This document shows, one piece after another, positions 3,434 to 58,808 of a stretch of DNA of 64,000 nucleotides (position 1 is the first letter of the stretch; each line of letters begins with the position of its first letter). The notes beneath the pieces were generated by a model, which was given only the letters and a program-made list of their open reading frames with translations, was not told the origin of the DNA and did no database searches. A program made the position numbers and the translations under genes. The stretch comes from an uncultured Actinomycetota bacterium (GTDB lineage: Bacteria; Actinomycetota; Actinomycetes; Mycobacteriales; SCTD01). The stretch lies in assembly GCA_963761655.1 (NCBI GenBank), contig CAVXHI010000001.1, positions 292,683-356,682 of the forward strand, given 5' to 3'.

Positions 3434-3507
3434 TGGAGCGGGCGACGAGAATCGAACTCGCGTGTCTTGCTTGGGAAGCAAGCGCACTACCATTGTGCTA
3501 CGCCCGC
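3434..3507 (-). tRNA. tRNA-Gly (anticodon CCC), CCA encoded
   Basis: The reverse complement reads GCGGGCG-TA-GCAC..GTGC-CTTGC-TTCCCAA-GCAAG-ACAC-GCGAG-TTCGATT-CTCGT-CGCCCGC-T-CCA. This is a full cloverleaf with a GTTCGATTC T-loop and anticodon CCC. Confidence 0.93.
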
Positions 3508-3564: not shown

Positions 3565-4158
3565 GTGCTGCTCTCCGACCGCGACCTCAAGGCCGCCCTC
3601 GCCTCCGGGCGCCTGGGACTGGCGCCGTACGACGAGGCGATGGTCCAGCCGAGCAGCATCGACGTCCGCCTGGACCGGTGGTTCCGGGTGTTCGCCAACC
3701 ACCGGTACACCCACATCGACCCGGCCGTCGCGCAGGACGACCTCACCGAGCTGGTCGAGGCCGTGGGCGACGAGCCGTTCGTGCTGCACCCGGGCGAGTT
3801 CGTGCTGGGCAGCACCCTCGAGGTGATCAGCCTCGGCGACGACCTCGCCGCAAGACTAGAAGGAAAATCAAGTCTGGGGCGCCTCGGGCTGCTCACGCAC
3901 TCCACGGCGGGCTTCATCGACCCGGGCTTCTCCGGGCACGTGACCCTCGAGCTGTCCAACGTCGCGAACCTGCCGATCAAGCTCTACCCCGGGATGAAGA
4001 TCGGCCAGGTCTGCGTCCTGCCGCTGAGCTCCCCGGCGGAGAGCCCGTACGGCAGCGAGCGCTACGGCAGCCGGTACCAGGGCCAGCGCGGCCCGACGGC
4101 GAGCAAGTCGCACCTGCGCTTCAACGTGGCGTCGACGCGAGACCCTCAGGAGTCCTGA
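3565..4158 (+). CDS. dcd: dCTP deaminase
   Basis: 197 aa: MLLSDRDL..., [42 protein letters not shown] -10-like hexamer (3553-3558) lies 6 nt before the GTG, so the mRNA may be leaderless. Confidence 0.93.
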
Positions 4159-5332
4159 ACCCCCGCACCCCGGGCACCCGCAGCACCGACAGCGGCAGGG
4201 CGACCGCGAGCACCGTGGCGGCGGCCAGCACCGGTCCGCGTCCGGCGGCCCGCACCAGGGGTCCCGTCAGGGCGAGGCCCAGCGGGTAGAGCGCGAACGT
4301 CATCATCCAGTCGAGGGACACGACCCGGGCGAGGAGCGCCCGCGGGACGTCGGTCTGCAGCGAGCTCTCCCACACGACGACGAACAGCCCGATCCCGCCC
4401 GAGGCCAGCGCCCACGCCGCGCACAGCACGGGCAGCGGAGCCTCGAGCAGGAGCGCCAGCGGCTGGACGGCGCAGAGGGCGGTCGTGAGCACGGCCCAGC
4501 GGCCCTTCGAGGCGGGACCCAGCCGGGTGGCCGCCGCCGCACCGAGCAGGCCGCCGAGGGCGCCGACGGCCAGGACGATCCCGTACGTCGCCGTCTCGCC
4601 CGTGGTGTCGCGGACCGTGACGGGCAGCAGCACCTGCACGGGCGCCCCCACCAGCAGCATGTAGAGGCTGAACATGCCGAGGCAGGACGCGATCCAGGCG
4701 CGCTCCCGGACGGCCCGGACCCCGGCCGCGACCTCGCCGAGGACGCGCTGGCGCGGAGCGGGGACGTGCGGCTCCTCGTGCACCCGCAGCAGGGTCGCGG
4801 CGCTCGTGGCGAAGGTGGCGGCGTCGAACAGGAACCCCGCCCGCACGCCGGCCGCGGCCACCAGCAGCCCGGCGAGGCCCGGCCCGACCACCTGGGCGAG
4901 CTGCTGCGTGCTCGAGGCGAGGGCGTTGCCCGCGGGCAGGAGCGGACCGGGCAGGACCGACGGCAGCAGCGCCCCGAAGGCGGGCCGGAAGAACGCCTCC
5001 CCGGCGCCGACGACGAAGACCAGGGCGGCGAGCACGGGCACGCTGGCGGTCCCGGCGACGACGAGCCCCAGCACGGCCACGAGGCGGAGCAGGTCGGCCG
5101 ACACCATGACCCGACGGCGCGGCAGCCGGTCGGCCCACACCCCGCCGAGCAGGCTGAACAGGACGAGCGCGGCGAAGCGGGCGGCGAGCACGAGGCCCAG
5201 CTCGCCGGCGGAGCCCCCGGAGTCCAGGACCAGGACGGCGACCGTCACGGGGAAGACCTGGTCGCCGACGGCGCTGACCGCCTGGCCCGCGTACAGCCAC
5301 CGGAAGGCCGGCACCTGCAGGGCGGCCTTCAC
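4121..5332 (-). CDS. MFS transporter (12-TMS type)
   Basis: ORF 4121..5479. The body is hydrophobic and multi-helical ([16 protein letters not shown]..., WADRLPRRR loop). GTG at 5332 (VKAALQ...) is the likely start. The 3' end overlaps dcd convergently. Confidence 0.75.
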
Positions 5333-5530
5333 GCGGGCGCCCCGACGCCGACGTGGCGCCGCGTCCTCGGGGTCCGCCGTGCGCGGGAGCGGCGCTCCTG
5401 CCCGTCGCGGTGCTGCACCGCCCACCCCCCGCGAGTCGTCGGGGAGCCTAGGCGCCCCGGCCTGGAGCACCGCCCGCACGACGACGCCCCGCCCTCCGAC
5501 GGGGGGAGGACGGGGCGTCGAGGAGGGCGA

Positions 5531-8152
5531 CTAGCTGTGCGGGCGCTCCGGGCCGCCGGCGGTGCCGGCGCTGCCGCCCTCGCTCGCGCCGCCGGGCGCG
5601 TCACCCGCGACGCTGCCGGTCGGGGCCGCGGTGACGTCCGGGCCGTGGCCCTCCGCCGTCCGGGCCGGGGCCTGGTCGCCCTGCCCGGCGTCGGAGGCCT
5701 GCGTCGTGATGCCGGGGCCGGTGGTCGCCGGAGCAGTGACGCCCGACGTCGCGGTGTCCTGCGTCGGCTGCGAGCCGCCGTCGCCGCCGCCCGCGCCCGA
5801 CGTGCCGTGGGTCTGGGCGAGCTGCGGGTAGTCCGCGACCTCGGTCTTGGCCGGGTCGGGGTCGACCGGCTTGGGGGCCTCGACGGTGACGTCCTCGGTG
5901 ACGACGTTCTCGCCGGCCTGCGCGGGGGCACCCGCACCGACCAGGGCGGGGGCGCCGACGAGCGACTTCGCCAGGATCTGGCTGACGTCGAGGACCTGCA
6001 CGCCGTCCTTGGCCTCGCCGGACTGCTGCTTGGCGGTGACGGCGTCGGACAGCATGACCATGCAGAACGGGCAGGCCGTGGAGATGAGGTCGGGGTCGAC
6101 GCCCAGGGCCTCGTCGGTGCGCTCCACGTTGATGTGCTTGCCGATCTTCTCCTCCATCCACATGCGGGCGCCGCCGGCGCCGCAGCAGAAGCCGCGCTCC
6201 TTGCAGCGGGGCATCTCCTGGCTGGTGAGGCCGGGGATGCTGGCGAGGACCTCGCGCGGCGGGCTGTAGATGCGGTTGTGCCGGCCCAGGTAGCAGGGGT
6301 CGTGGTAGGTGACCTTCTCGTCGACCGGGGTGATCGGCACGAGCCGGCCCGTCTCGACGAGGTGCCCCAGCAGCTGGGTGTGGTGGACGACCTCGTAGTT
6401 CCCGCCGAGCTGGCTGTACTCGTTCGCCAGCGTGTTGAAGCAGTGCGGGCAGGTCGCGACGATCTTCATGCCGGGCCGGTCCGCCCCGACGCCGTTGAGG
6501 ACCTCGACGTTCTGCTGCGCGAGCGCCTGGAAGACGAACTCGTTGCCGAGGCGGCGGGCCGGGTCACCGGTGCACGCCTCGTTGGACCCGAGGACGGCGA
6601 ACGTCACGTCGGCGGTGTGGAGCAGCTCGGCGAACGCCCGCGTGACCTTCTTGCTGCGGTCCTCGAGGGCGCCGGCGCAGCCGACCCAGAACAGGTACTC
6701 GGTCCCCTCGGGGATCGCGTCCTCGACGACCGTGACCTCGAACGGGAGGTTCGCGTACCACTCGTCGCGCATCGTCTCCTTGAGGCCCCAGGGGTTGCCG
6801 TTCTTCTCGAGGTTGCGCAGCATCACGCCGGCCTCGCTCGGGAACGCGCTCTCGATCAGCACCTGGTAGCGGCGCATGTCGAGGATGTGGTCGACGTGCT
6901 CGATGTCGACGGGGCACTGCTCGACGCAGGCGCCGCAGGTGGTGCAGCTCCACAGGACGTCGGGGTCGATGACCCCGCCCTCCTCGGCGGTGCCGACGAG
7001 CGGGCGCACGGCCTGGTCGGGGGTGGTGCCCTCGACGCGGGCGTAGCCGTCCTCCGGGACGTGGTTGCCCGTGTGGGTCCCGGCGTCGTGGAAGTTCGGG
7101 ACGTGGTCCTCGGGGTGGTCCTTGTCGCCGAGGATGTACGGCGCCTTGGCGAACAGGTGGTCGCGCAGGTTCATGATCAGCAGCTTGGGGCTGAGCGGCT
7201 TGCCCGTGTTCCACGCCGGGCACTGGCTCTGGCAGCGGCCGCACTCGGTGCAGGTGGCCATGTCGAGCATCGCGGTCCACTTGAAGTCCTCGACCTTGGC
7301 GACGCCGAAGGTGTCGACCTCGGGGTCGGCCTCCTCGAAGTCGAGGACCTTGCCGCCGCTCATCATCGGCATCAGCGGGCCGAGCGCGGTGCGCTCCGGG
7401 TAGCGCTTCGTGAGGACGTTCAGCGGTGCGGTGAAGATGTGCAGGTGCTTGGAGTAGGTCACCAGCACGAGGAAGCCCATGATCACGCCGACCTGCCCGA
7501 GGACCATGACGTCCTCGATGACCTCGTTGGCGCGCACGCCGAGCGGGTCGATGGCCTTGGCGATGAGGTTGGAGAAGAAGACCGCGCCGGGCACGTCCTG
7601 CCAGGGGCTGACGCCGTTGTTGAGCTGCGCGGCGCGGATCCCGAACATCGTGAACAGCACGAAGAAGATCAGCGTCAGGACGACCCAGGCGGCACCCGTG
7701 TGCGAGCCGTAGAAGCGGCTGTCGCGCTGCTGGCGGGTCGGGTCCTGGCGCAGGCGCAGGAACGCGAAGGTCAGGATGCCGAGGAGCACGGCGACGCCGA
7801 AGAAGTCCTCCAGGAACCCGAACCAGCCGAACCGGCCGACGAACGGGATCGCGAAGTTCTCGTCGAACATGGCGCCGAAGGCCTCGAGGACGGTGAAGCC
7901 CAGGACGATGAAGCCCCAGAACGTCATGAAGTGGGCGACGCCGGGGACGCTCCACTTCAGCAGGCGCCGCTGCCCGAAGACCTCGACGACCTGGGCGACG
8001 GCGCGCTTCTGCCAGTCGTCCAGCCGCCCCGGGGAGGCCTGGCCGGAGGCCACCATCCGGTAGAGGAAGAACACACGGCGCGCGGCGATGGCGCCGGCGA
8101 TGAGGGTGATCGTCAGACCGACGACCAGGCGCACGATCATGTGCGTTTCCAC
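5531..8152 (-). CDS. Membrane-anchored (Fe-S)-binding oxidoreductase with cysteine-rich CCG domains (heterodisulfide-reductase-like)
   Basis: ORF 5531..8221. N-terminal TM helices, two 4Fe-4S motifs (CTECGRCQSQCP, CTTCGACVEQCP) and CCG motifs (CPHCFNTL, CPFCMVML). The last ~150 aa are a Pro/Ala/Gly/Thr-rich low-complexity tail. GTG at 8152 follows GGAGGA. Confidence 0.85.
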   Translation of the reverse strand: METHMIVRLVVGLTITLIAGAIAARRVFFLYRMVASGQASPGRLDDWQKRAVAQVVEVFGQRRLLKWSVPGVAHFMTFWGFIVLGFTVLEAFGAMFDENFAIPFVGRFGWFGFLEDFFGVAVLLGILTFAFLRLRQDPTRQQRDSRFYGSHTGAAWVVLTLIFFVLFTMFGIRAAQLNNGVSPWQDVPGAVFFSNLIAKAIDPLGVRANEVIEDVMVLGQVGVIMGFLVLVTYSKHLHIFTAPLNVLTKRYPERTALGPLMPMMSGGKVLDFEEADPEVDTFGVAKVEDFKWTAMLDMATCTECGRCQSQCPAWNTGKPLSPKLLIMNLRDHLFAKAPYILGDKDHPEDHVPNFHDAGTHTGNHVPEDGYARVEGTTPDQAVRPLVGTAEEGGVIDPDVLWSCTTCGACVEQCPVDIEHVDHILDMRRYQVLIESAFPSEAGVMLRNLEKNGNPWGLKETMRDEWYANLPFEVTVVEDAIPEGTEYLFWVGCAGALEDRSKKVTRAFAELLHTADVTFAVLGSNEACTGDPARRLGNEFVFQALAQQNVEVLNGVGADRPGMKIVATCPHCFNTLANEYSQLGGNYEVVHHTQLLGHLVETGRLVPITPVDEKVTYHDPCYLGRHNRIYSPPREVLASIPGLTSQEMPRCKERGFCCGAGGARMWMEEKIGKHINVERTDEALGVDPDLISTACPFCMVMLSDAVTAKQQSGEAKDGVQVLDVSQILAKSLVGAPALVGAGAPAQAGENVVTEDVTVEAPKPVDPDPAKTEVADYPQLAQTHGTSGAGGGDGGSQPTQDTATSGVTAPATTGPGITTQASDAGQGDQAPARTAEGHGPDVTAAPTGSVAGDAPGGASEGGSAGTAGGPERPHS

Positions 8153-8412
8153 GGGTCCTCCAGGTACAGGGCGGAACAGCGTCCGCACGCGCGCGCAGAG
8201 CGTACGTCGCGCCCGGGTCAAGGGCTACCGGCGAGTAACTTCCGGACGACGCACTCCTGCTGCCGCCATCGTCCCGCGCAGCCTCCCGCGCCCGCACGCC
8301 GGGGGTCGGTCCGCGGCCGCCACAGGTCCTGTGTCGCGCTGCGCCCCTCCTGCGGAGCCCGGGCCGGGGCGCACCGCGACACGAGGCCGGGCGGGAGCCT
8401 CCGACGGCCGGC

Positions 8413-8694: not shown

Positions 8695-10515
8695 GTGGCA
8701 CGCGCTGTCGGCATCGACCTCGGCACCACCAACTCCTGCGTCGCCGTCCTCGAGGGCGGCGAGCCCACCGTGATCGCCAACGCGGAGGGCGCCCGCACCA
8801 CCCCGTCGATCGTGGCCTTCGCCAAGAACGGCGAGGTCCTCGTCGGCGAGGTGGCCAAGCGCCAGGCGGTCACCAACGTCGAGCGCACCATCCGCTCGGT
8901 CAAGCGCCACATGGGCACCGACTGGAAGCAGTCGCTCGACGGCAAGGACTTCACGCCGCAGCAGATCAGCGCGTTCGTCCTGCAGAAGCTCAAGCGCGAC
9001 GCCGAGAGCTACCTCGGGGACACCGTCACCGACGCCGTCATCACGGTGCCGGCGTACTTCTCCGACGCCGAGCGCCAGGCCACCAAGGAGGCCGGCGAGG
9101 TCGCGGGCCTGAACGTCCTGCGGATCGTCAACGAGCCCACCGCGGCCGCCCTGGCCTACGGCCTCGACAAGGGCGACAAGGAGCAGACGATCCTCGTCTT
9201 CGACCTCGGCGGCGGCACGTTCGACGTGTCCCTGCTCGAGATCGGCGACGGCGTCATCGAGGTCAAGGCGACCTCGGGCGACAACAAGCTCGGCGGCGAC
9301 GACTGGGACCAGCGGGTCGTCGAGCACCTCGTCAAGCAGTTCGCCCTGTCCAACAACGGCCACGACCTGTCCAAGGACAAGATGGCCCTGCAGCGCCTGC
9401 GCGAGGCGGCCGAGAAGGCCAAGATCGAGCTCTCGGCGTCGCAGCAGACCAGCATCAACCTGCCGTACATCACCGCGAGCCCCGAGGGCCCGCTGCACCT
9501 CGACGTCTCCATGACGCGGGCCGAGTTCCAGCGGCTCACCCAGGACCTGCTCGACCGGTGCAAGAAGCCGTTCAACCAGGCCGTCAAGGACGCCGGCATC
9601 TCCGTCGGCGCGATCGACCACGTGGTGCTCGTCGGCGGTTCCACCCGCATGCCGGCCGTGTCCGACCTGGTCCGCGAGCTCACCGGCGGCAAGGAGCCCA
9701 ACAAGGGCGTCAACCCCGACGAGGTCGTCGCCATCGGCGCGGCCCTGCAGGCCGGCGTCCTCAAGGGCGAGGTCAAGGACGTCCTGCTGCTCGACGTCAC
9801 CCCGCTGTCCCTCGGCATCGAGACCAAGGGCGGGATCATGACCAAGCTCATCGAGCGCAACACCACGATCCCGACCAAGCGCTCCGAGGTCTTCACGACG
9901 GCGGACGACAACCAGCCGTCGGTGCAGATCCAGGTGTTCCAGGGCGAGCGCGAGATGGCCGCCTACAACAAGAAGCTCGGCATGTTCGAGCTCACCGGTC
10001 TGCCGCCCGCCCCCCGCGGCGTCCCGCAGATCGAGGTCGTCTTCGACATCGACGCCAACGGCATCGTGCACGTCTCCGCCAAGGACCTCGGCACCGGCAA
10101 GGAGCAGCGCATGACCATCTCCGGCGGCAGCGCGCTGCCCAAGGACGAGGTCGAGCGGATGATGAAGGAGGCCGAGCAGTACGCCGAGGAGGACGCCAAG
10201 CGCAAGGAGGAGGCGGAGACCCGCAACTCCGCCGAGGCGCTCGTCTTCCAGACCGAGAAGTTCCTCGGCGAGAACGGCGACAAGGTCCCTGCCGAGGGCA
10301 AGGCCGAGGTCGAGGAGGCGCTCTCCACGCTGAAGAGCGCCCTGGGCGGCAGCGACACCGCGGCCGTCAAGACCGCCGCCGAGGACCTCTCGCAGAAGAG
10401 CTCCGCGCTGGGCGGTGCGCTCTACGCCCAGCAGGCCGAGGCCGGTGACGGCGGGTCCGCGTCGCCCGAGGACGACGGCGTCGTCGACGCCGAGATCGTC
10501 GACGAGGACAAGTAG
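8695..10515 (+). CDS. dnaK: Molecular chaperone DnaK (Hsp70)
   Basis: 606 aa: [45 protein letters not shown] lies 7 nt upstream of the GTG. Confidence 0.98.
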
Positions 10516-10518
10516 TCG

Positions 10519-11106
10519 ATGACCGGTCCTGACACGGAGTTCGACCCGGACCGGGTCGTGGTGCGCGACAAGCGCCGCCTCGACCCGGAGACGGGCGAGG
10601 TCAAGGCGCCCGAGGTCCTGGAGCAGGAGCCGGCGGCGGACGAGCCGCCGGCCCCGGACCCCCTCGCCGAGCTCACCGAGACCCTCCAGCGGGTCCAGGC
10701 GGAGTACGCCAACTACCGCAAGCGGGTCGAGCGCGACCGCGTCGCCATGGTCGAGCAGGCCACCGGCACGCTGCTCGCGCAGCTGCTGCCCCTGCTCGAC
10801 GACGTCAGCCGCGCGCGGCAGCACGACGACCTCACCGGCGCGTTCAAGACGGTCGGCGAGGGCCTCGAGCAGGTCGCCCAGCGGCTGGGCCTCGAGACCT
10901 ACGGCCAGCCCGGCGAGCCGTTCGACCCGCAGGTGCACGAGGCCGTCATGCAGGCCGAGCCCGACCCGGCGTTCAGCGTGGCGACCTGCGCGCAGGTCTT
11001 CCGCCCGGGCTTCCGGGTCGGCGGGCGGGTCCTGCGTCCGGCCCAGGTCGCGGTGGCCGAGCCCGGGGCCGACGCCGCGGCTCCGGCCACCGACACGAAG
11101 CTCTAG
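10519..11106 (+). CDS. grpE: Nucleotide exchange factor GrpE
   Basis: 195 aa. It sits between dnaK and dnaJ and carries YANYRKRVERD and the GrpE C-terminal beta domain (VLRPAQVAV). Confidence 0.93.
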   Translation: MTGPDTEFDPDRVVVRDKRRLDPETGEVKAPEVLEQEPAADEPPAPDPLAELTETLQRVQAEYANYRKRVERDRVAMVEQATGTLLAQLLPLLDDVSRARQHDDLTGAFKTVGEGLEQVAQRLGLETYGQPGEPFDPQVHEAVMQAEPDPAFSVATCAQVFRPGFRVGGRVLRPAQVAVAEPGADAAAPATDTKL

Positions 11107-11121
11107 GGAGGAGGGGACGCC

Positions 11122-12249
11122 GTGAGTGCACGTGACGTGGAGAAGGACTACTACGCCGCTCTCGGCGTCCCCGCGGACGCCCCGACGGCGGACATCAAGA
11201 AGGCCTACCGCAAGCTCGCGACCGAGCTGCACCCGGACAAGAACCCGGGCGACACGAAGGCCGAGGAGCGCTTCAAGAGCGTCTCGGAGGCCTACGACGT
11301 CCTGTCCGACGACGCCAAGCGCCGCGAGTACGACGAGCAGCGCCGGTACTTCGGCAGCGGCGGCCGCGCCGGTGGCGGCGGCTTCTCCTTCGACGTCAAC
11401 GACCTGTTCGGGCAGGGCGGCGCGGGCGGTCTCGGCGACGTCTTCAGCGGCCTGTTCGGCCAGGGCGGCGGACGGCGCGGGCCGGGGCAGCGGCAGCCCC
11501 GCAAGGGCGCCGACGTCGAGACGACCGTGACGCTGTCGTTCGTCGACGCGCTCCGCGGCTGCACGGTCCCGCTGCGGCTCTCGACCAGGGGCACGTGCGA
11601 GACCTGCCGGGGCGACGGCGCGGCTCCCGGCACGTCGCCGCGGGCCTGCGGCGTGTGCGGCGGACAGGGCGTCGTCAGCCGCAACCAGGGCGGGTTCGCG
11701 TTCGCCGAGCCGTGCACCGCCTGCCGCGGCTCGGGCCGCGTGGTCGAGACGCCCTGCCCGACCTGCCGCGGCACGGGCGAGACCTCGAGCGAGCGCACCC
11801 TGCAGGTGCGGGTGCCGACCGGGATCGAGGACGGGCAGCGCATCCGGCTGGCCGGTCGTGGGGGCGCCGGCGAGCGGGGAGGGACAGCGGGCGACCTCCT
11901 GGTCACGGTCGTCGTCACGCCCCACCCGGTCTTCTCGCGCCGCGGCACCGACCTCGTCCTCACCCTCCCGGTCACCTACCCGGAGGCGGCGCTCGGGGCG
12001 CAGGTCTCCGTCCCGACGACGGAGGGCCCCGTCACCCTCAAGGTCCCGCCCGGCACCACCACCGGCCGGACGTTCCGGGTGCGCGGCCGCGGGGTGAAGA
12101 AGAAGGACGGCAGCTCCGGCGACCTCCTCGTCACCGTGGAGGTCGCGGTCCCCAAGGACATGACGCCCGAGGCCCGGGAGGCGCTGGAGCGGTACGCCGT
12201 CGCCGCGCCCCAGGACCCGCGGGCCCACCTGCGGGAGGTGCAGCTGTGA
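11122..12249 (+). CDS. dnaJ: Co-chaperone DnaJ
   Basis: J domain (DYYAALGV...HPDKNP), G/F-rich linker, four CxxCxGxG zinc-finger repeats and a C-terminal domain. Confidence 0.96.
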
Positions 12250-12647
12250 GCATCAACGACGACGCCCCGGTCTTCGTCATCTCGGTCGCGGCCGAGCTGT
12301 CCGGCATGCACCCCCAGACGCTCCGCCAGTACGACCGCCTCGGGCTCGTCACGCCCGGGCGCTCCGGCGGCGGGGGGCGCCGGTACTCCGCCCGCGACGT
12401 CGGCAAGCTCCGCGAGGTGCAGCGCCTCTCCCAGGAGGAGGGGGTCAACCTCGCCGGCGTGAAGCGGATCATCGAGCTGGAGAACCAGGTCGAGGCCCTG
12501 CAGGCGCGGCTGCTCGAGGTGGCCGCCGAGCTGGACCAGGCGGTGCGGGCGGCGGCGTCCGCACAGCAGACCGCGGCGGCGAGCCTGCGCCGCGACCTCG
12601 TGCCCCTGCGCGACAGCGCCCTGGTGGTGTGGAAGCCCCGCCGGTGA
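12246..12647 (+). CDS. hspR: MerR-family heat-shock repressor HspR
   Basis: The GTG overlaps the dnaJ stop (GTGA). [43 protein letters not shown] is the MerR HTH, followed by a coiled coil. It is the fourth gene of the dnaK operon. Confidence 0.9.
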
Positions 12648-12649
12648 TG

Positions 12650-12665
12650 CTGTGCACGTGCACAG
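12650..12665. terminator. Perfect 16-bp palindrome CTGTGCACGTGCACAG 3 nt after the hspR stop (terminator or operator)
   Basis: Read directly from the sequence. A second small hairpin, GTGAC-ACCG-GTCAC, follows at about 12675-12688. Confidence 0.4.
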
Positions 12666-15957: not shown

Positions 15958-16006
15958 GCGCTGTCCCGACGCGCGCGCTGTCCCGACGCGCGTGGTCCCG
16001 ACGCGC
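15958..16006. repeat. Tandem direct repeat, 3 copies of GCGCTGTCCCGACGCGC (17, 17 and 15 nt)
   Basis: Copies at 15958-15974, 15975-15991 and 15992-16006. The third is GTGGTCCCGACGCGC. Confidence 0.9.
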
Positions 16007-16070
16007 TTGATCAACGGAGTCTGAGACAGCGTCCGGCCCGGCGGGGGCTGTCTCAGACTCCGTTGATCAA
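16007..16070. repeat. Perfect 24-bp inverted repeat with 16-nt loop
   Basis: TTGATCAACGGAGTCTGAGACAGC (16007-16030) is the exact reverse complement of GCTGTCTCAGACTCCGTTGATCAA (16047-16070). Confidence 0.95.
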
Positions 16071-16088
16071 AGAGGCGGCGCCGTGCAG

Positions 16089-16111
16089 AGTTGAGCGGAA
16101 CACTGTCAACT
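16089..16111. promoter_or_regulatory. HAIR-like inverted repeat upstream of clpB
   Basis: AGTTGA-GCGGAACACTG-TCAACT. It shares the core GAGC(C)GGAACACT with dnaK operator 1. Confidence 0.5.
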
Positions 16112-16163
16112 CCTGCGGCGTTCTGGGGTGCAGACTCCGCACTCCCGCACGAGAGGAACACCC

Positions 16164-38321: not shown

Positions 38322-38556
38322 GAGCTCGAACCTACGACGCGACGGCCCTCGTCCCGCCCGAGTGGTGATGACCCCGCTGACTCACGCCCATCAGGCTCCT
38401 GCCGGTCGCTTCTGATCGTGAACTGCGGCGTGGAAACGCCTCTCTCACCACTCCGGGCGGGACGAGCGACGGCGTGTGGACGACGGCGCCTGCTGTGGAG
38501 GACGCTGATCGGGCACCCTCGGCACACCTACCGTCCCCCGCGTGGCAGGAGCAGCG

Positions 38557-39078
38557 ATGACGACGATCGTCCGCGGGCCCCGCCCGCCGGAGCTCGAGCA
38601 GCTGCTCGCGCGCCGCAAGCGCTCCGGTGCGGACCGGTTCGACGAGGTGTGGGAGGGGCGGTACGTCGTGGCACCCGACCCGCACAGCCGGCACGGCGTG
38701 GTGCAGATCGAGCTGGGGGTCCTGCTCAAGCCGGTGGCCCGCAGGCTGGGCGCCCGCGCGGCCCTGACCTTCAACCTGGGGACGCCGAGCGACTTCCGCA
38801 TCCCGGACGCCGGGCTCATCAGCGGCCCGCACGCCGTGTGGCACGCCACCGCGCTGCTCGTCGTCGAGGTGCTGTCCCCCGACGACGCCACCTTCGAGAA
38901 GCTCGACTTCTACACCGCCCACGGCGTGCGGGAGCTCCTCGTCGTCGACCCGGAGGAGCGGACCGTCCGGTGCTTCGCCCTGCAGGACGGCCAGGCCGAG
39001 CGCGACCGCTCCGAGCTGCTCGACATGACGACGACCGAGGTGACCGGGGCCATCGACTGGCCCGACCTCGACGAGTGA
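38557..39078 (+). CDS. Uma2-family (DUF820) PD-(D/E)xK putative endonuclease
   Basis: PDAGLI...LVVEVLSPDD...K..FYTAHGVRELLVVDPEERTV. ATG at 38557 follows AGGAG; the ORF opens at 38542. Confidence 0.75.
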   Translation: MTTIVRGPRPPELEQLLARRKRSGADRFDEVWEGRYVVAPDPHSRHGVVQIELGVLLKPVARRLGARAALTFNLGTPSDFRIPDAGLISGPHAVWHATALLVVEVLSPDDATFEKLDFYTAHGVRELLVVDPEERTVRCFALQDGQAERDRSELLDMTTTEVTGAIDWPDLDE

Positions 39079-54761: not shown

Positions 54762-55841
54762 CTACAGCCCTCGCGCCGCCGCCATGCGGCGCTCGCCGAG
54801 CCGGTCGGCCGCGACCGCCGGCGGCACGCCCTCGGACTCCGCCAGCGCGAACACCTCGAGCGTCGTGTCGAAGATCCTCGACGCCCCCTGCTTCGCCCGG
54901 TCGAAGGAGAACCCGCCCTCGCCGATCGCCTCGTCGCCGACCTGCACGACGCCGCCCGCGTTGGCGACGTAGTCCGGGGCGTAGAGGACCCCGGCGTCGG
55001 CGAGCAGCTTCTCCACCCCGGGGTGGGCGAGCTGGTTGTTGGCCGCTCCGCACACCACCCGGGCCTGCAGCCGCGGGACGACCTCGTCGGTGAGCGAGCC
55101 GCCCAGCGCGCAGGGCGCGTAGACGTCGAGGGCGAGCCCCGGCAGCTCCTGCACCGTCGAGGCCTCGGCGCCGAGCGCGGTCGCCCGGGCCACGGCGGCG
55201 TCCGCGACGTCGCTCACGACCACGGACGCGCCGTCCTGCAGGAGGTGCTCGACGAGGTGCAGGCCGACCTTGCCGACCCCCTCGACGCCCACCCGCCTGC
55301 CGGCCAGGGTCGGCTCGCCCCAGACCTGCTGCGCCGCCGCCCGCATCGCCTGGAACACGCCGTACGCCGTGAGGACGGCGCTGTCGCCGGCGCCGCCGCG
55401 CTCGGGCGAGCGCCCGGTCACGAAGCGGCTGGTCTCGGAGACGACGTCCATGTCGGGGACGAAGGTGCCGACGTCGCACGCCGTGTAGTAGCGGCCGCCG
55501 AGGGCCTCGACCATGCGCCCGTAGGCGCGCAGGAGGTCGTCGGTCTTGTCGCGGGCGGGGTCGCCGAGGATCACGGCCTTGCCGCCACCGAGGGCGAGGC
55601 CGGCGCAGGCCGCCTTGTAGGCCATCGCGCGGGACAGCGCCAGGACGTCGGTGAGGGCGGCGTCCTCGGAGGCGTACGGGTAGAACCGCGTGCCGCCGAG
55701 GGCCGGCCCGAGGGCGGTGCTGTAGACGGCGATGATCGCCTTGAGGCCCGAGGCGCGGTCCTGGCAGAAGACCACCTGCTCGTGGCCGGCGTCCTGCAGG
55801 TGGTCGGTGCGGTCGAAGACGCCCACGGCGTGCTCCTTCAT
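54762..55841 (-). CDS. Glu/Leu/Phe/Val dehydrogenase-family enzyme (valine/leucine dehydrogenase type)
   Basis: [23 protein letters not shown] and the Rossmann segment GVEGVGKVG. Confidence 0.9.
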
Positions 55842-55960
55842 CAGTGCCGGGGCCCACGCACGTGATCGACGCTGCGGGCCGTGCGGCGGACGGCGGGGGA
55901 GGTGTGCCCCAGATCACGGCCGAGCCTAGCGACGGCCTCCCCCGTGCCACGATCTGACCC

Positions 55961-57190: not shown

Positions 57191-57712
57191 GTGGGCGTGT
57201 TCTGCGTGGACCGCGCGGGGGTGCAGGTCTTCGGCACGTCCCACCGCCTGTGGGGGCTGCTCGGGGACGTGCTGGCCGCGCTGCAGGCCGAGCAGGTGGC
57301 CGCGGCCTGGACCTTCGACGGGTACGTCCCGTCCTGGCTGGCGCGGTCCTGGGGCGACCTGCTGTTCCGCGACCTCGGTGAGGTCGTGCTCGTGTGCCGG
57401 CCCCTCCCCGGGCACAGCAGCGAGCTCCAGCCGGTCGGGACCTACCGCCGCGGGAGCCCGGCGGCTGCTGCCCTGACCCGGGCGGGCGAGCACCTCAGCG
57501 TCTACGACACGCCGGTCGCCACCGCACTGCTCGCCTTCGCCCAGACCTGCACGGCCACGGCCGGCTTCAGCGTCACCACCCTGCGGCCGCCCGCGCCCGG
57601 CAGCCCCCGCAGCGAGGTCGCCGTCCGCCGTCTGCTGGCGCGGAGCGGCATGCTGGGGGTGACCGGGCGCGGTTCGGGCAGGCTGGTCGGAGCTCCCCGC
57701 CGACGACGATGA
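57191..57712 (+). CDS. Hypothetical protein
   Basis: 173 aa with G/C third-position bias. I recognised no family. Confidence 0.5.
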   Translation: MGVFCVDRAGVQVFGTSHRLWGLLGDVLAALQAEQVAAAWTFDGYVPSWLARSWGDLLFRDLGEVVLVCRPLPGHSSELQPVGTYRRGSPAAAALTRAGEHLSVYDTPVATALLAFAQTCTATAGFSVTTLRPPAPGSPRSEVAVRRLLARSGMLGVTGRGSGRLVGAPRRRR

Positions 57713-57722
57713 AGGACGACGC

Positions 57723-58808
57723 ATGCTGATCCGCAACTTCGGGTGGGCCGCGGCCCTGACGGTGGCCGCGGTCGTCGTCGCCGCCGTCACGGGCGGGATC
57801 GGCACCGCGCTGATCGTGCTGCTGCTCGGCGTCCTCGAGATCTCGCTGTCGTTCGACAACGCGGTGGTCAACGCCAAGGTGCTCGAGCGCATGCACCCGG
57901 TCTGGCAGCGGCTGTTCCTGACCGTCGGCATCCTCATCGCCGTCTTCGGGATGCGCCTGGTGCTGCCGATCCTCATCGTCTCGATCACCGCGGGCCTCGG
58001 GTTCGGCGAGGTCATCGACCTGGCGCTCAACGACTCCCAGCGGTACGGCGAGGAGCTGGCCGCCTCCGAGGCGCTCATCTACGCCTTCGGCGGGACCTTC
58101 CTGCTCATGATCTTCCTGGACTTCGTGCTCGACCCCGAGCGCGAGATCCTGTGGCTGACGCCGGTCGAGAAGGCGCTGCAGAAGATCGGCAAGCTCGACC
58201 AGCTCTCGGTGCTGCTCGCCCTCGGCGGGATCTACCTCATGTCGCGGCTCGCGCCCGAGGACGAGGTCACGAAGGTCCTGCTCGCCGGCATCGCCGGCCT
58301 GGTCACCTACCTCGCGGTCAACGGCCTGGACGCCCTGTTCGAGGAGTCCATGGAGAACCGCGAGGGCGAGGACACCGGCCCGGCCGGCGGCAAGATGACG
58401 ATGGCCGTCTTCAAGGCGGGCGTCTTCTCCTTCCTCTACCTCGAGGTCCTCGACGCGTCGTTCTCCTTCGACGGCGTCATCGGCGCGTTCGCCATCTCCG
58501 ACGAGGTCCTCGTCATCGCCCTCGGCCTCGGCATCGGCGCCTTCTGGATCCGCTCGCTGACCATCTACCTGGTCCGGGCCGGGACGCTGTCGGAGTACGT
58601 GTACCTCGAGCACGGCGCCCACTGGGCGATCGGCGTGCTCGCCGGCATCATGCTGTTCTCGGTGAAGTACCACATCAGCGAGGTCGTCACGGGCCTCACC
58701 GGCGTCGCGTTCATCCTGCTGTCGCTGTACAGCTCGGTGCGCGAGCGTCGGGAGCGCGACGTCGACGTGCAGGACAGCGAGAAGGTCCTCGGCACGACGC
58801 AGCGGTAG
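57723..58808 (+). CDS. DUF475-family integral membrane protein (TerC-related)
   Basis: LEISLSFDNAVVNA and a second LEVLDASFSFDGVIGAF half. Multi-TM. GAAGGA RBS. Confidence 0.8.
   Translation: MLIRNFGWAAALTVAAVVVAAVTGGIGTALIVLLLGVLEISLSFDNAVVNAKVLERMHPVWQRLFLTVGILIAVFGMRLVLPILIVSITAGLGFGEVIDLALNDSQRYGEELAASEALIYAFGGTFLLMIFLDFVLDPEREILWLTPVEKALQKIGKLDQLSVLLALGGIYLMSRLAPEDEVTKVLLAGIAGLVTYLAVNGLDALFEESMENREGEDTGPAGGKMTMAVFKAGVFSFLYLEVLDASFSFDGVIGAFAISDEVLVIALGLGIGAFWIRSLTIYLVRAGTLSEYVYLEHGAHWAIGVLAGIMLFSVKYHISEVVTGLTGVAFILLSLYSSVRERRERDVDVQDSEKVLGTTQR

Follow-up and report, generated by a model that had tools for sequence, protein, structure and literature searches.

A private run of rare A/T-ending codons in the dcd gene of a GC-rich actinobacterium, probably a fast-evolving feature of translation

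The dcd island and the closest described systems

Clusters of rare codons that keep their position among orthologs have reportedly been described by Clarke and Clark, and bldA control relies on single TTA codons together with a developmentally regulated tRNA. In Actinomycetota, enrichment of rare codons is seen at the 5' or 3' termini of genes (PMC13072593). Here, we describe an island of eight consecutive A/T-ending codons within dcd, the gene of a dCTP deaminase, on a stretch of 64,000 nucleotides from an uncultured member of the Actinomycetota (assembly GCA_963761655.1, contig CAVXHI010000001.1, positions 292,683 to 356,682; the whole stretch is referred to as the window). The island covers codons 96-103 of the gene, encoding ARLEGKSS (Table 1).

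With the position-conserved clusters, the dcd island shares a locally rare run of codons and a presumed slowing of translation; in part of its clade, though not in the closest sisters, orthologs also have rare codons at the homologous position, with codons that differ from one ortholog to the next. Unlike those clusters, the rare run is complete (eight of eight codons) and several of its codons are virtually unused elsewhere; moreover, the islands in dcd are limited to one shallow clade, turn over rapidly and are missing even from sister lineages. In contrast to the terminal rare codons of Actinomycetota, the island lies in the middle of its gene, on an invariant catalytic motif. A further parallel is the TTA (bldA) and AGA control of Streptomyces and other Actinomycetota (PMC13072593), since here, too, near-forbidden A/T-rich codons could tie one gene to scarce tRNAs. 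However, the island in the window has no TTA, consists of seven different rare codons in a row, and belongs to a gene of housekeeping nucleotide metabolism.

Against the NCBIfam equivalog TIGR02274, which has a cut-off of 92.8, the product of dcd reaches 205 bits, and its alignment to the enzyme of Mycobacterium tuberculosis (PDB 2QXX, E = 4e-92, residues 1-186 in both) runs residue by residue. The window has a G+C content of 74.4% over its 64 kb, and the G+C fraction at third codon positions (GC3) of dcd amounts to 0.94 with the island and 0.98 without it. The run of eight A/T-ending codons picked out by the initial annotation agrees with our codon map, and a recount confirmed 9 G+C among its 24 nucleotides as well as ordinary codons on each side: 77 codons upstream and 88 codons downstream all end in G or C, and dcd contains only four A/T-ending codons outside the island. 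A 24-mer with ten or fewer G+C occurs nowhere else in the 64 kb; the minimum of 8 is reached in the island region, and the next lowest value elsewhere is 11. Each codon of the island makes up at most 3.6% of its own synonymous family. For example, in 36 window genes, which total 14,135 codons, AAA occurs in none of 314 cases, CTA in 2 of 1526, GAA in 7 of 839, AGA in 6 of 1149, and TCA and AGT in 6 of 732 each. Under this codon usage, the probability of eight A/T-ending codons for ARLEGKSS is about 1e-14; the island is not a product of chance under the window's codon usage, and in a gene-wide scan with synonymous shuffles of the window dcd it lies at the permutation floor. TTA is absent from the whole gene, Leu98 being encoded by CTA. 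The proposal that the island coincides with the most conserved motif of the enzyme holds in part: of the invariant block R97-L110, only the first half lies under the island, and residue A96, with which the island begins, varies among relatives (A, S or G).

We compared the site with about 170 dcd loci from relatives, comprising 80 loci of species-representative genomes (74-87% protein identity), 80 loci from metagenomes and 15 loci of the closest proteins in a collection of 5.8 billion proteins. The 24-mer of the island is found in none of them, and at this site the codons of even the closest relatives are ordinary GC-rich ones. In L081 (P0001, 96% amino acid identity) the sequence reads GCC CGG CTG GAG GGC AAG AGC TCG, and in L082 (P0002, 92% amino acid identity) GCG CGG CTG GAG GGC AAG TCC AGC. 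Outside the island, 45-46 of 184 third positions differ between the window and these two sequences, only two of them towards A/T; inside, all eight third positions differ, as does the first base of the arginine codon, and the nucleotides that truly deviate from the relatives span 3852-3873. Five or more A/T-ending codons at the island site were seen elsewhere only in dcd genes with a flanking GC3 of 0.35-0.57. In related high-GC dcd genes, the 24 nucleotides are thus neither AT-rich nor conserved at synonymous sites. A conserved nucleotide element, be it a structured RNA, an sRNA target or a binding site, was rejected for this lack of synonymous-site conservation among the relatives, and with it falls the earlier suggestion of an sRNA or protein binding site embedded in the coding sequence. 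Taken from the sequence comparisons, the island is probably a real, fast-evolving feature at the level of translation and not a conserved sequence element.

Recurrence of different islands within the clade

The relatives whose nucleotide identity to the window is 80% or higher form a Frankiales-like clade of 18 sequences, corresponding to about 14 lineages. Two further islands were found in this clade, both different from that of the window. Codons 97-104 of L168 (P0006, 91% identity; JGI 3300064040, Ga0604922_0283184) read agg CTC gaa gga aaa AGC tca ttg (common codons in capitals), in a gene with a GC3 of 0.97-0.98 (0.978 outside the island site); the 9-mer GAAGGAAAA is common to L168, the window and L109. 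In L171-L173 (P0005, GC3 ~0.96), codons 104-110 (LGRLGLL) read ttg GGG cgt tta GGG ctt ttg. This island includes TTA at L107, a codon never used among the 1,526 leucine codons of the window. Both islands are broken up by common GC-ending codons. The L171-L173 island is identical in three independent assemblies at ENA (ERZ27272696, ERZ28593289 and ERZ28593309), so such islands exist in nature and an artefact or planted edit in the window is unlikely. No island is present in L177, the sister of L171 (95% protein identity, GC3 1.00), nor in the window's sisters, L081 and L082.

For all 113 dcd genes with a GC3 of at least 0.90, we scored every eight-codon segment for rarity. The five most extreme segments are those of the window, which ranks top, of L171-L173 and of L168, and in gene-wide synonymous shuffles of the high-GC dcd set only these sequences lie at the permutation floor. 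A rare-codon test restricted to codons 96-110, the p-values of which are uniform over the whole data set, gave p < 0.05 for 8 of the 18 clade sequences (about 6 of 14 lineages), versus 4% of 121 other high-GC dcd genes (Mann-Whitney p = 8e-5, calculated with no phylogenetic correction). Besides L168 and the L171 group, the clade members concerned are L001, L003, L083 and L170. In these milder cases, rare codons occur singly and dispersed (e.g. agg, aga, gaa, cgt, cga, ggt, ctt and ttg), and this scattered excess looks more like point substitutions in situ than like imported tracts. As judged by these comparisons, the sequence is not conserved, yet the position is special in this clade. Since rare AT-rich codons turn up again at this position in related lineages, though in other sequences, the idea of a pause site, one of the explanations offered in the initial annotation, receives indirect support.

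Translation, import and other explanations

We propose, tentatively, that the island is the extreme of a clade-specific and position-specific preference for rare A/T-rich codons at codons 96-110 of dcd, which would act on translation; we hold this to be plausible and the likeliest of the readings weighed here, with considerable room for doubt. According to this proposal, eight successive codons read by the scarcest tRNAs would hold the ribosome for about one footprint length, and its slowing would lower or time the synthesis of Dcd. Selection, not a template, would have produced the island. In addition, the island changes are predicted to cost the message about 14-16 kcal/mol of local structure, in the region where its folding is strongest. 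When folded in a context of 153 nt, the native sequence gives a predicted -63.7 kcal/mol versus -77 to -80 kcal/mol with the codons of relatives restored, and island-free relatives are predicted to be most strongly folded over codons 55-125. The island region lies within this broad, strongly folded zone and is not a unique optimum, which makes a need for structure relief suggestive only. As a putative ancestor, we consider GCG AGG CTG GAG GGG AAG TCG AGC, from which each island codon is one GC-to-AT transition away; each of these ancestral codons is seen at its own position in some relative (AGG within the clade, TCG AGC in Streptomyces). On the side of benefit, we speculate that the island may tune the output of Dcd, an enzyme drawing dCTP off toward dTTP, in an organism whose genome requires three times more C than T.

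Several observations weigh against this proposal. The two closest sisters carry CGG, GGC and TCC rather than the codons of the putative ancestor, and with a GC3 of 0.98-1.00 they do without an island, which is therefore not required. Outside the clade, no excess of A/T at third positions is found at the island codons (0.074 versus a gene mean of 0.068), and the clade comparison given above takes no account of phylogeny. The edges are very sharp (eight of eight codons, followed by none of 88 and preceded by none of 77), for which a single templated event is simpler than nine fixations. Rare-codon brakes are usually situated near the 5' ends of genes. It was also conceivable that the peptide is the easiest place to build an AT-rich run; this idea was rejected, as ARLEGKSS ranks 104th of 190 in this respect, and the location on the motif is hence not predicted by the pause model. 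An even more far-reaching variant would make the island a self-referential throttle, in which Dcd synthesis is gated by a footprint-long A/U-ending run on its own catalytic motif in an ultra-high-GC lineage, the output of Dcd and with it the dCTP/dTTP ratio, feeding back on genomic GC, are tied to the supply of the rarest tRNAs, and equivalent throttles have evolved independently in the relatives. We regard this variant as a long shot.

As an alternative to changes in situ, a tract of 22-26 nt from a lower-GC dcd homolog of a bacterium or phage might have been imported, by micro gene conversion or by annealing of single-stranded DNA at the replication fork, leaving a neutral scar that would have survived because it changes no amino acid of the invariant motif. 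This is unlikely, yet more probable than the other alternatives below. SPDIR (short-patch double illegitimate recombination) replaces 3 to ~100 bp at sites of extended microhomology, templated by ectopic or foreign single-stranded DNA, and the island resembles its products as a short patch of clustered substitutions. One event is more parsimonious than nine in explaining codon-sharp edges with every synonymous site in between changed. AGA, CTA, AAA, GGA and TCA correspond to the codon choice of low-GC genomes, and the low-GC actinobacterial dcd genes L130 and L152 show CTA GAA GGA AAA TCx at the same place; dcd is also common in phages (260 phage records), and the location in the longest invariant block is the remnant to be expected from a filter for protein neutrality. 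Of the conversion patch suggested by the initial annotation, the abrupt compositional switch and the sharp edges stand, but a donor did not turn up in the four collections searched (metagenomes, viruses, phages and plasmids). Neither 241 million metagenome records nor IMG/VR contain the exact 24-mer, and IMG/VR also lacks its core of 18 nt and a degenerate 21-mer. BLAST searches of 50,697 phage records and 72,556 plasmid records with 48 nt of context gave chance matches only (E of at least 0.3), as they did for the L168 and L171 islands. The best match among the ~170 dcd loci, in low-GC genomes, reaches only 18 of 24 positions; the nearest phage Dcd, of Saccharomonospora phage PIS 136 (72% identity), has GC-rich codons at the island site, and the window holds no second dcd copy as an ectopic template. 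A low-GC donor would offer no flanking identity for homologous recombination. As for SPDIR, the dcd patch is free of indels and keeps the frame exactly, and the measured frequency of 1e-13 to 1e-12 would seem to fall far short of what three independently fixed events in one gene among ~14 lineages demand. The interrupted islands of L168 and L171 and the scattered single rare codons of the clade have the look of point substitutions, and the other 35 window genes show no comparable patch in their invariant motifs (e.g. dnaK). The recurrence at one site would also fit a local AT-biased mutation hotspot, in which error-prone repair or deamination acts within ~45 nt and purifying selection leaves silent GC-to-AT changes only. 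GC-to-AT changes, most of them transitions, suffice to derive every island codon, and the strand bias differs (the window and L168 are A-rich, L171 is T-rich), as if different strands had been hit. We nevertheless consider a hotspot improbable: we know of no mutational process confined to ~24 nt with such sharp edges, the silent G/C sites directly downstream (CTG GGG CGC CTC GGG) are untouched, and the GC-rich sequence has no feature that would single it out, its predicted structure being strong, but not uniquely so.

Two further explanations treat the island as edited or as evading attack. Designed synonymous recoding is known from synthetic yeast chromosomes, with their PCRTags, and from silent edits that immunise against CRISPR, and the island resembles such tags in being a silent, codon-aligned block of ~20-28 nt inside an open reading frame. 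A deliberate synonymous edit, in the laboratory or in silico, or else an artefact of assembly, polishing or contamination, could be suspected for a patch that is exactly codon-aligned, wholly synonymous, of oligonucleotide size (24 nt) and unique to this record. Such an origin has little probability in our view. Nine silent in-frame changes are not produced by any ordinary assembly or polishing error, and the use of CTA instead of the most AT-rich TTA, together with two unlike serine codons, speaks against recoding by a simple deterministic rule. There is no sign of an engineered strain. Analogous islands lie at the same motif in natural metagenomic relatives from independent assemblies, in one case in three of them, and for a patch that was planted or arose by accident this would require a chance coincidence. 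Alternatively, the island could be an escape allele, acquired because the invariant motif, which tolerates silent changes only, is recurrently hit by a homing endonuclease of an intein or phage or by a nucleic-acid-guided system to which multiple silent recoding confers resistance. Escape would account for the location on the motif, the size of ~20-24 nt, the recurrence and the rapid turnover, and the motif is a proven homing site: the dCTP deaminase of Aphanizomenon phage vB_AphaS-CL131 carries a self-splicing HNH intein at GKSTYAR|CG (PMC6293099). The enzyme family and the conserved GK(S/T)xxxR motif as target of a mobile element are the same in both cases. In the window, the insertion point of CL131 (MG209611; L164, 38325-39992) corresponds to R106|L107 (3882/3883), a point spanned by the L171 island; the window island, however, stops 10 nt upstream of it. 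Unlike the phage gene, the window dcd is an uninterrupted reading frame with no intein or endonuclease gene in or beside it, and an intein could not splice here, because Leu takes the +1 position instead of Cys, Ser or Thr. Silent recoding would also be a poor means of escape, given that PI-SceI and PI-PspI cut targets altered at all wobble positions (PMC3159444), and escape does not demand changes towards A/T only. We therefore rate an escape allele as very improbable.

Local elements, gene surroundings and meaning

Table 1. Features in and around dcd (positions in the window)
Feature	Position	Strand	Basis and remarks
dcd, bifunctional-type dCTP deaminase	3565..4158	+	Open reading frame call; GTG start, 197 amino acids
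Island, codons 96-103 (ARLEGKSS)	3850..3873	+	GCA AGA CTA GAA GGA AAA TCA AGT
Invariant protein block R97-L110	3853..3894	+	Conservation among relatives; zone of private rare-codon runs in the window, L168 and L171-L173
Small predicted hairpin	3847..3880	+	Folding; 11 pairs, loop AGGAAAA; judged incidental
GAAGGA, similar to a Shine-Dalgarno sequence	3859..3864	+	Read from the sequence; judged not to be an internal ribosome-binding site
tRNA-Gly(CCC)	3434..3507		Rfam; adjoins dcd
Major facilitator superfamily (MFS) transporter	4121..5479	-	Open reading frame convergent with dcd

Of the local elements considered for the island, the Shine-Dalgarno-like GAAGGA was located as described, but the internal ribosome-binding site read into it is not borne out, as no ATG, GTG or TTG follows within 5-12 nt in any frame and the only in-frame candidate is a CTG at 3874. 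The complementary segments AGACT (3853-3857) and AGTCT (3871-3875) are indeed separated by 13 nt and belong to a small hairpin with a predicted -11.8 kcal/mol (z = -3.7 versus shuffles). A functional hairpin was rejected: among the 324 A/T-ending synonymous recodings of ARLEGKSS it ranks 56th, and because 55 recodings fold as well or better, it is judged an incidental by-product of the R-L...S-S-L codons. An antisense promoter, likewise considered in the initial annotation, is not supported, as neither a sigma-70-type promoter with its pair of hexamers nor an intrinsic terminator was found between 3400 and 4300 on either strand; the lone TANNNT hexamer (TAGTCT, minus strand, 3858-3853) belongs to a kind expected by chance. 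No Rfam family matches the island, the sole match being the neighbouring tRNA.

The neighbours of dcd are the tRNA-Gly gene and the MFS transporter gene, the reading frame of which overlaps the 3' end of dcd by 38 nt (4121-4158). The same convergent overlap of dcd and MFS genes is present in L081, and the C-terminus of the window Dcd is five residues longer than in the closest relatives. Among the relatives, P0003 (ENA, a contig of 1,111 nt) encodes a 'Dcd' of 258 amino acids that aligns in two overlapping pieces (residues 1-144 and 51-187), an arrangement resembling a dcd gene with a partial tandem duplication, or else a chimera made in assembly.

Shorter runs of 3-5 A/T-ending codons occur within the first ~25 codons of four other window genes, 5531-8224 (-), 54762-55913 (-), 57663-58808 (+) and 38509-39078 (+); they agree with the 5'-terminal enrichment in Actinomycetota (PMC13072593), and some may precede the true starts. 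Elsewhere in the window, the region 8695-12650 holds a dnaK-grpE-dnaJ cluster followed by a reading frame that, by position and sequence, is a putative MerR regulator of the hspR type; the exact proteins DnaK, GrpE and DnaJ are recorded together on one contig of 444,345 nt. An intergenic region contains a perfect inverted repeat of ~25 bp (CTTGATCAACGGAGTCTGAGACAGC at 16006-16030 and GCTGTCTCAGACTCCGTTGATCAA at 16047-16071, spacer ~16 nt). It is directly preceded by two to three tandem copies of a ~17-nt unit (GCGCTGTCCCGACGCGC..., 15958-16005) and another inverted repeat of smaller size, GAGTTGA-N11-TCAACTC, comes after it at ~16089-16113.

Should the island be real and selected, dcd of this clade would provide a clean natural experiment on the function of synonymous rare-codon runs, with three independent islands of different sequence on one invariant motif and with island-free sister lineages for comparison. 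If it is an imported tract instead, it would represent a rare natural case of horizontal replacement at micro scale between genomes of very different base composition. Either way, privately recoded patches can hide in perfectly conserved protein motifs, where they are invisible to comparison at the protein level.

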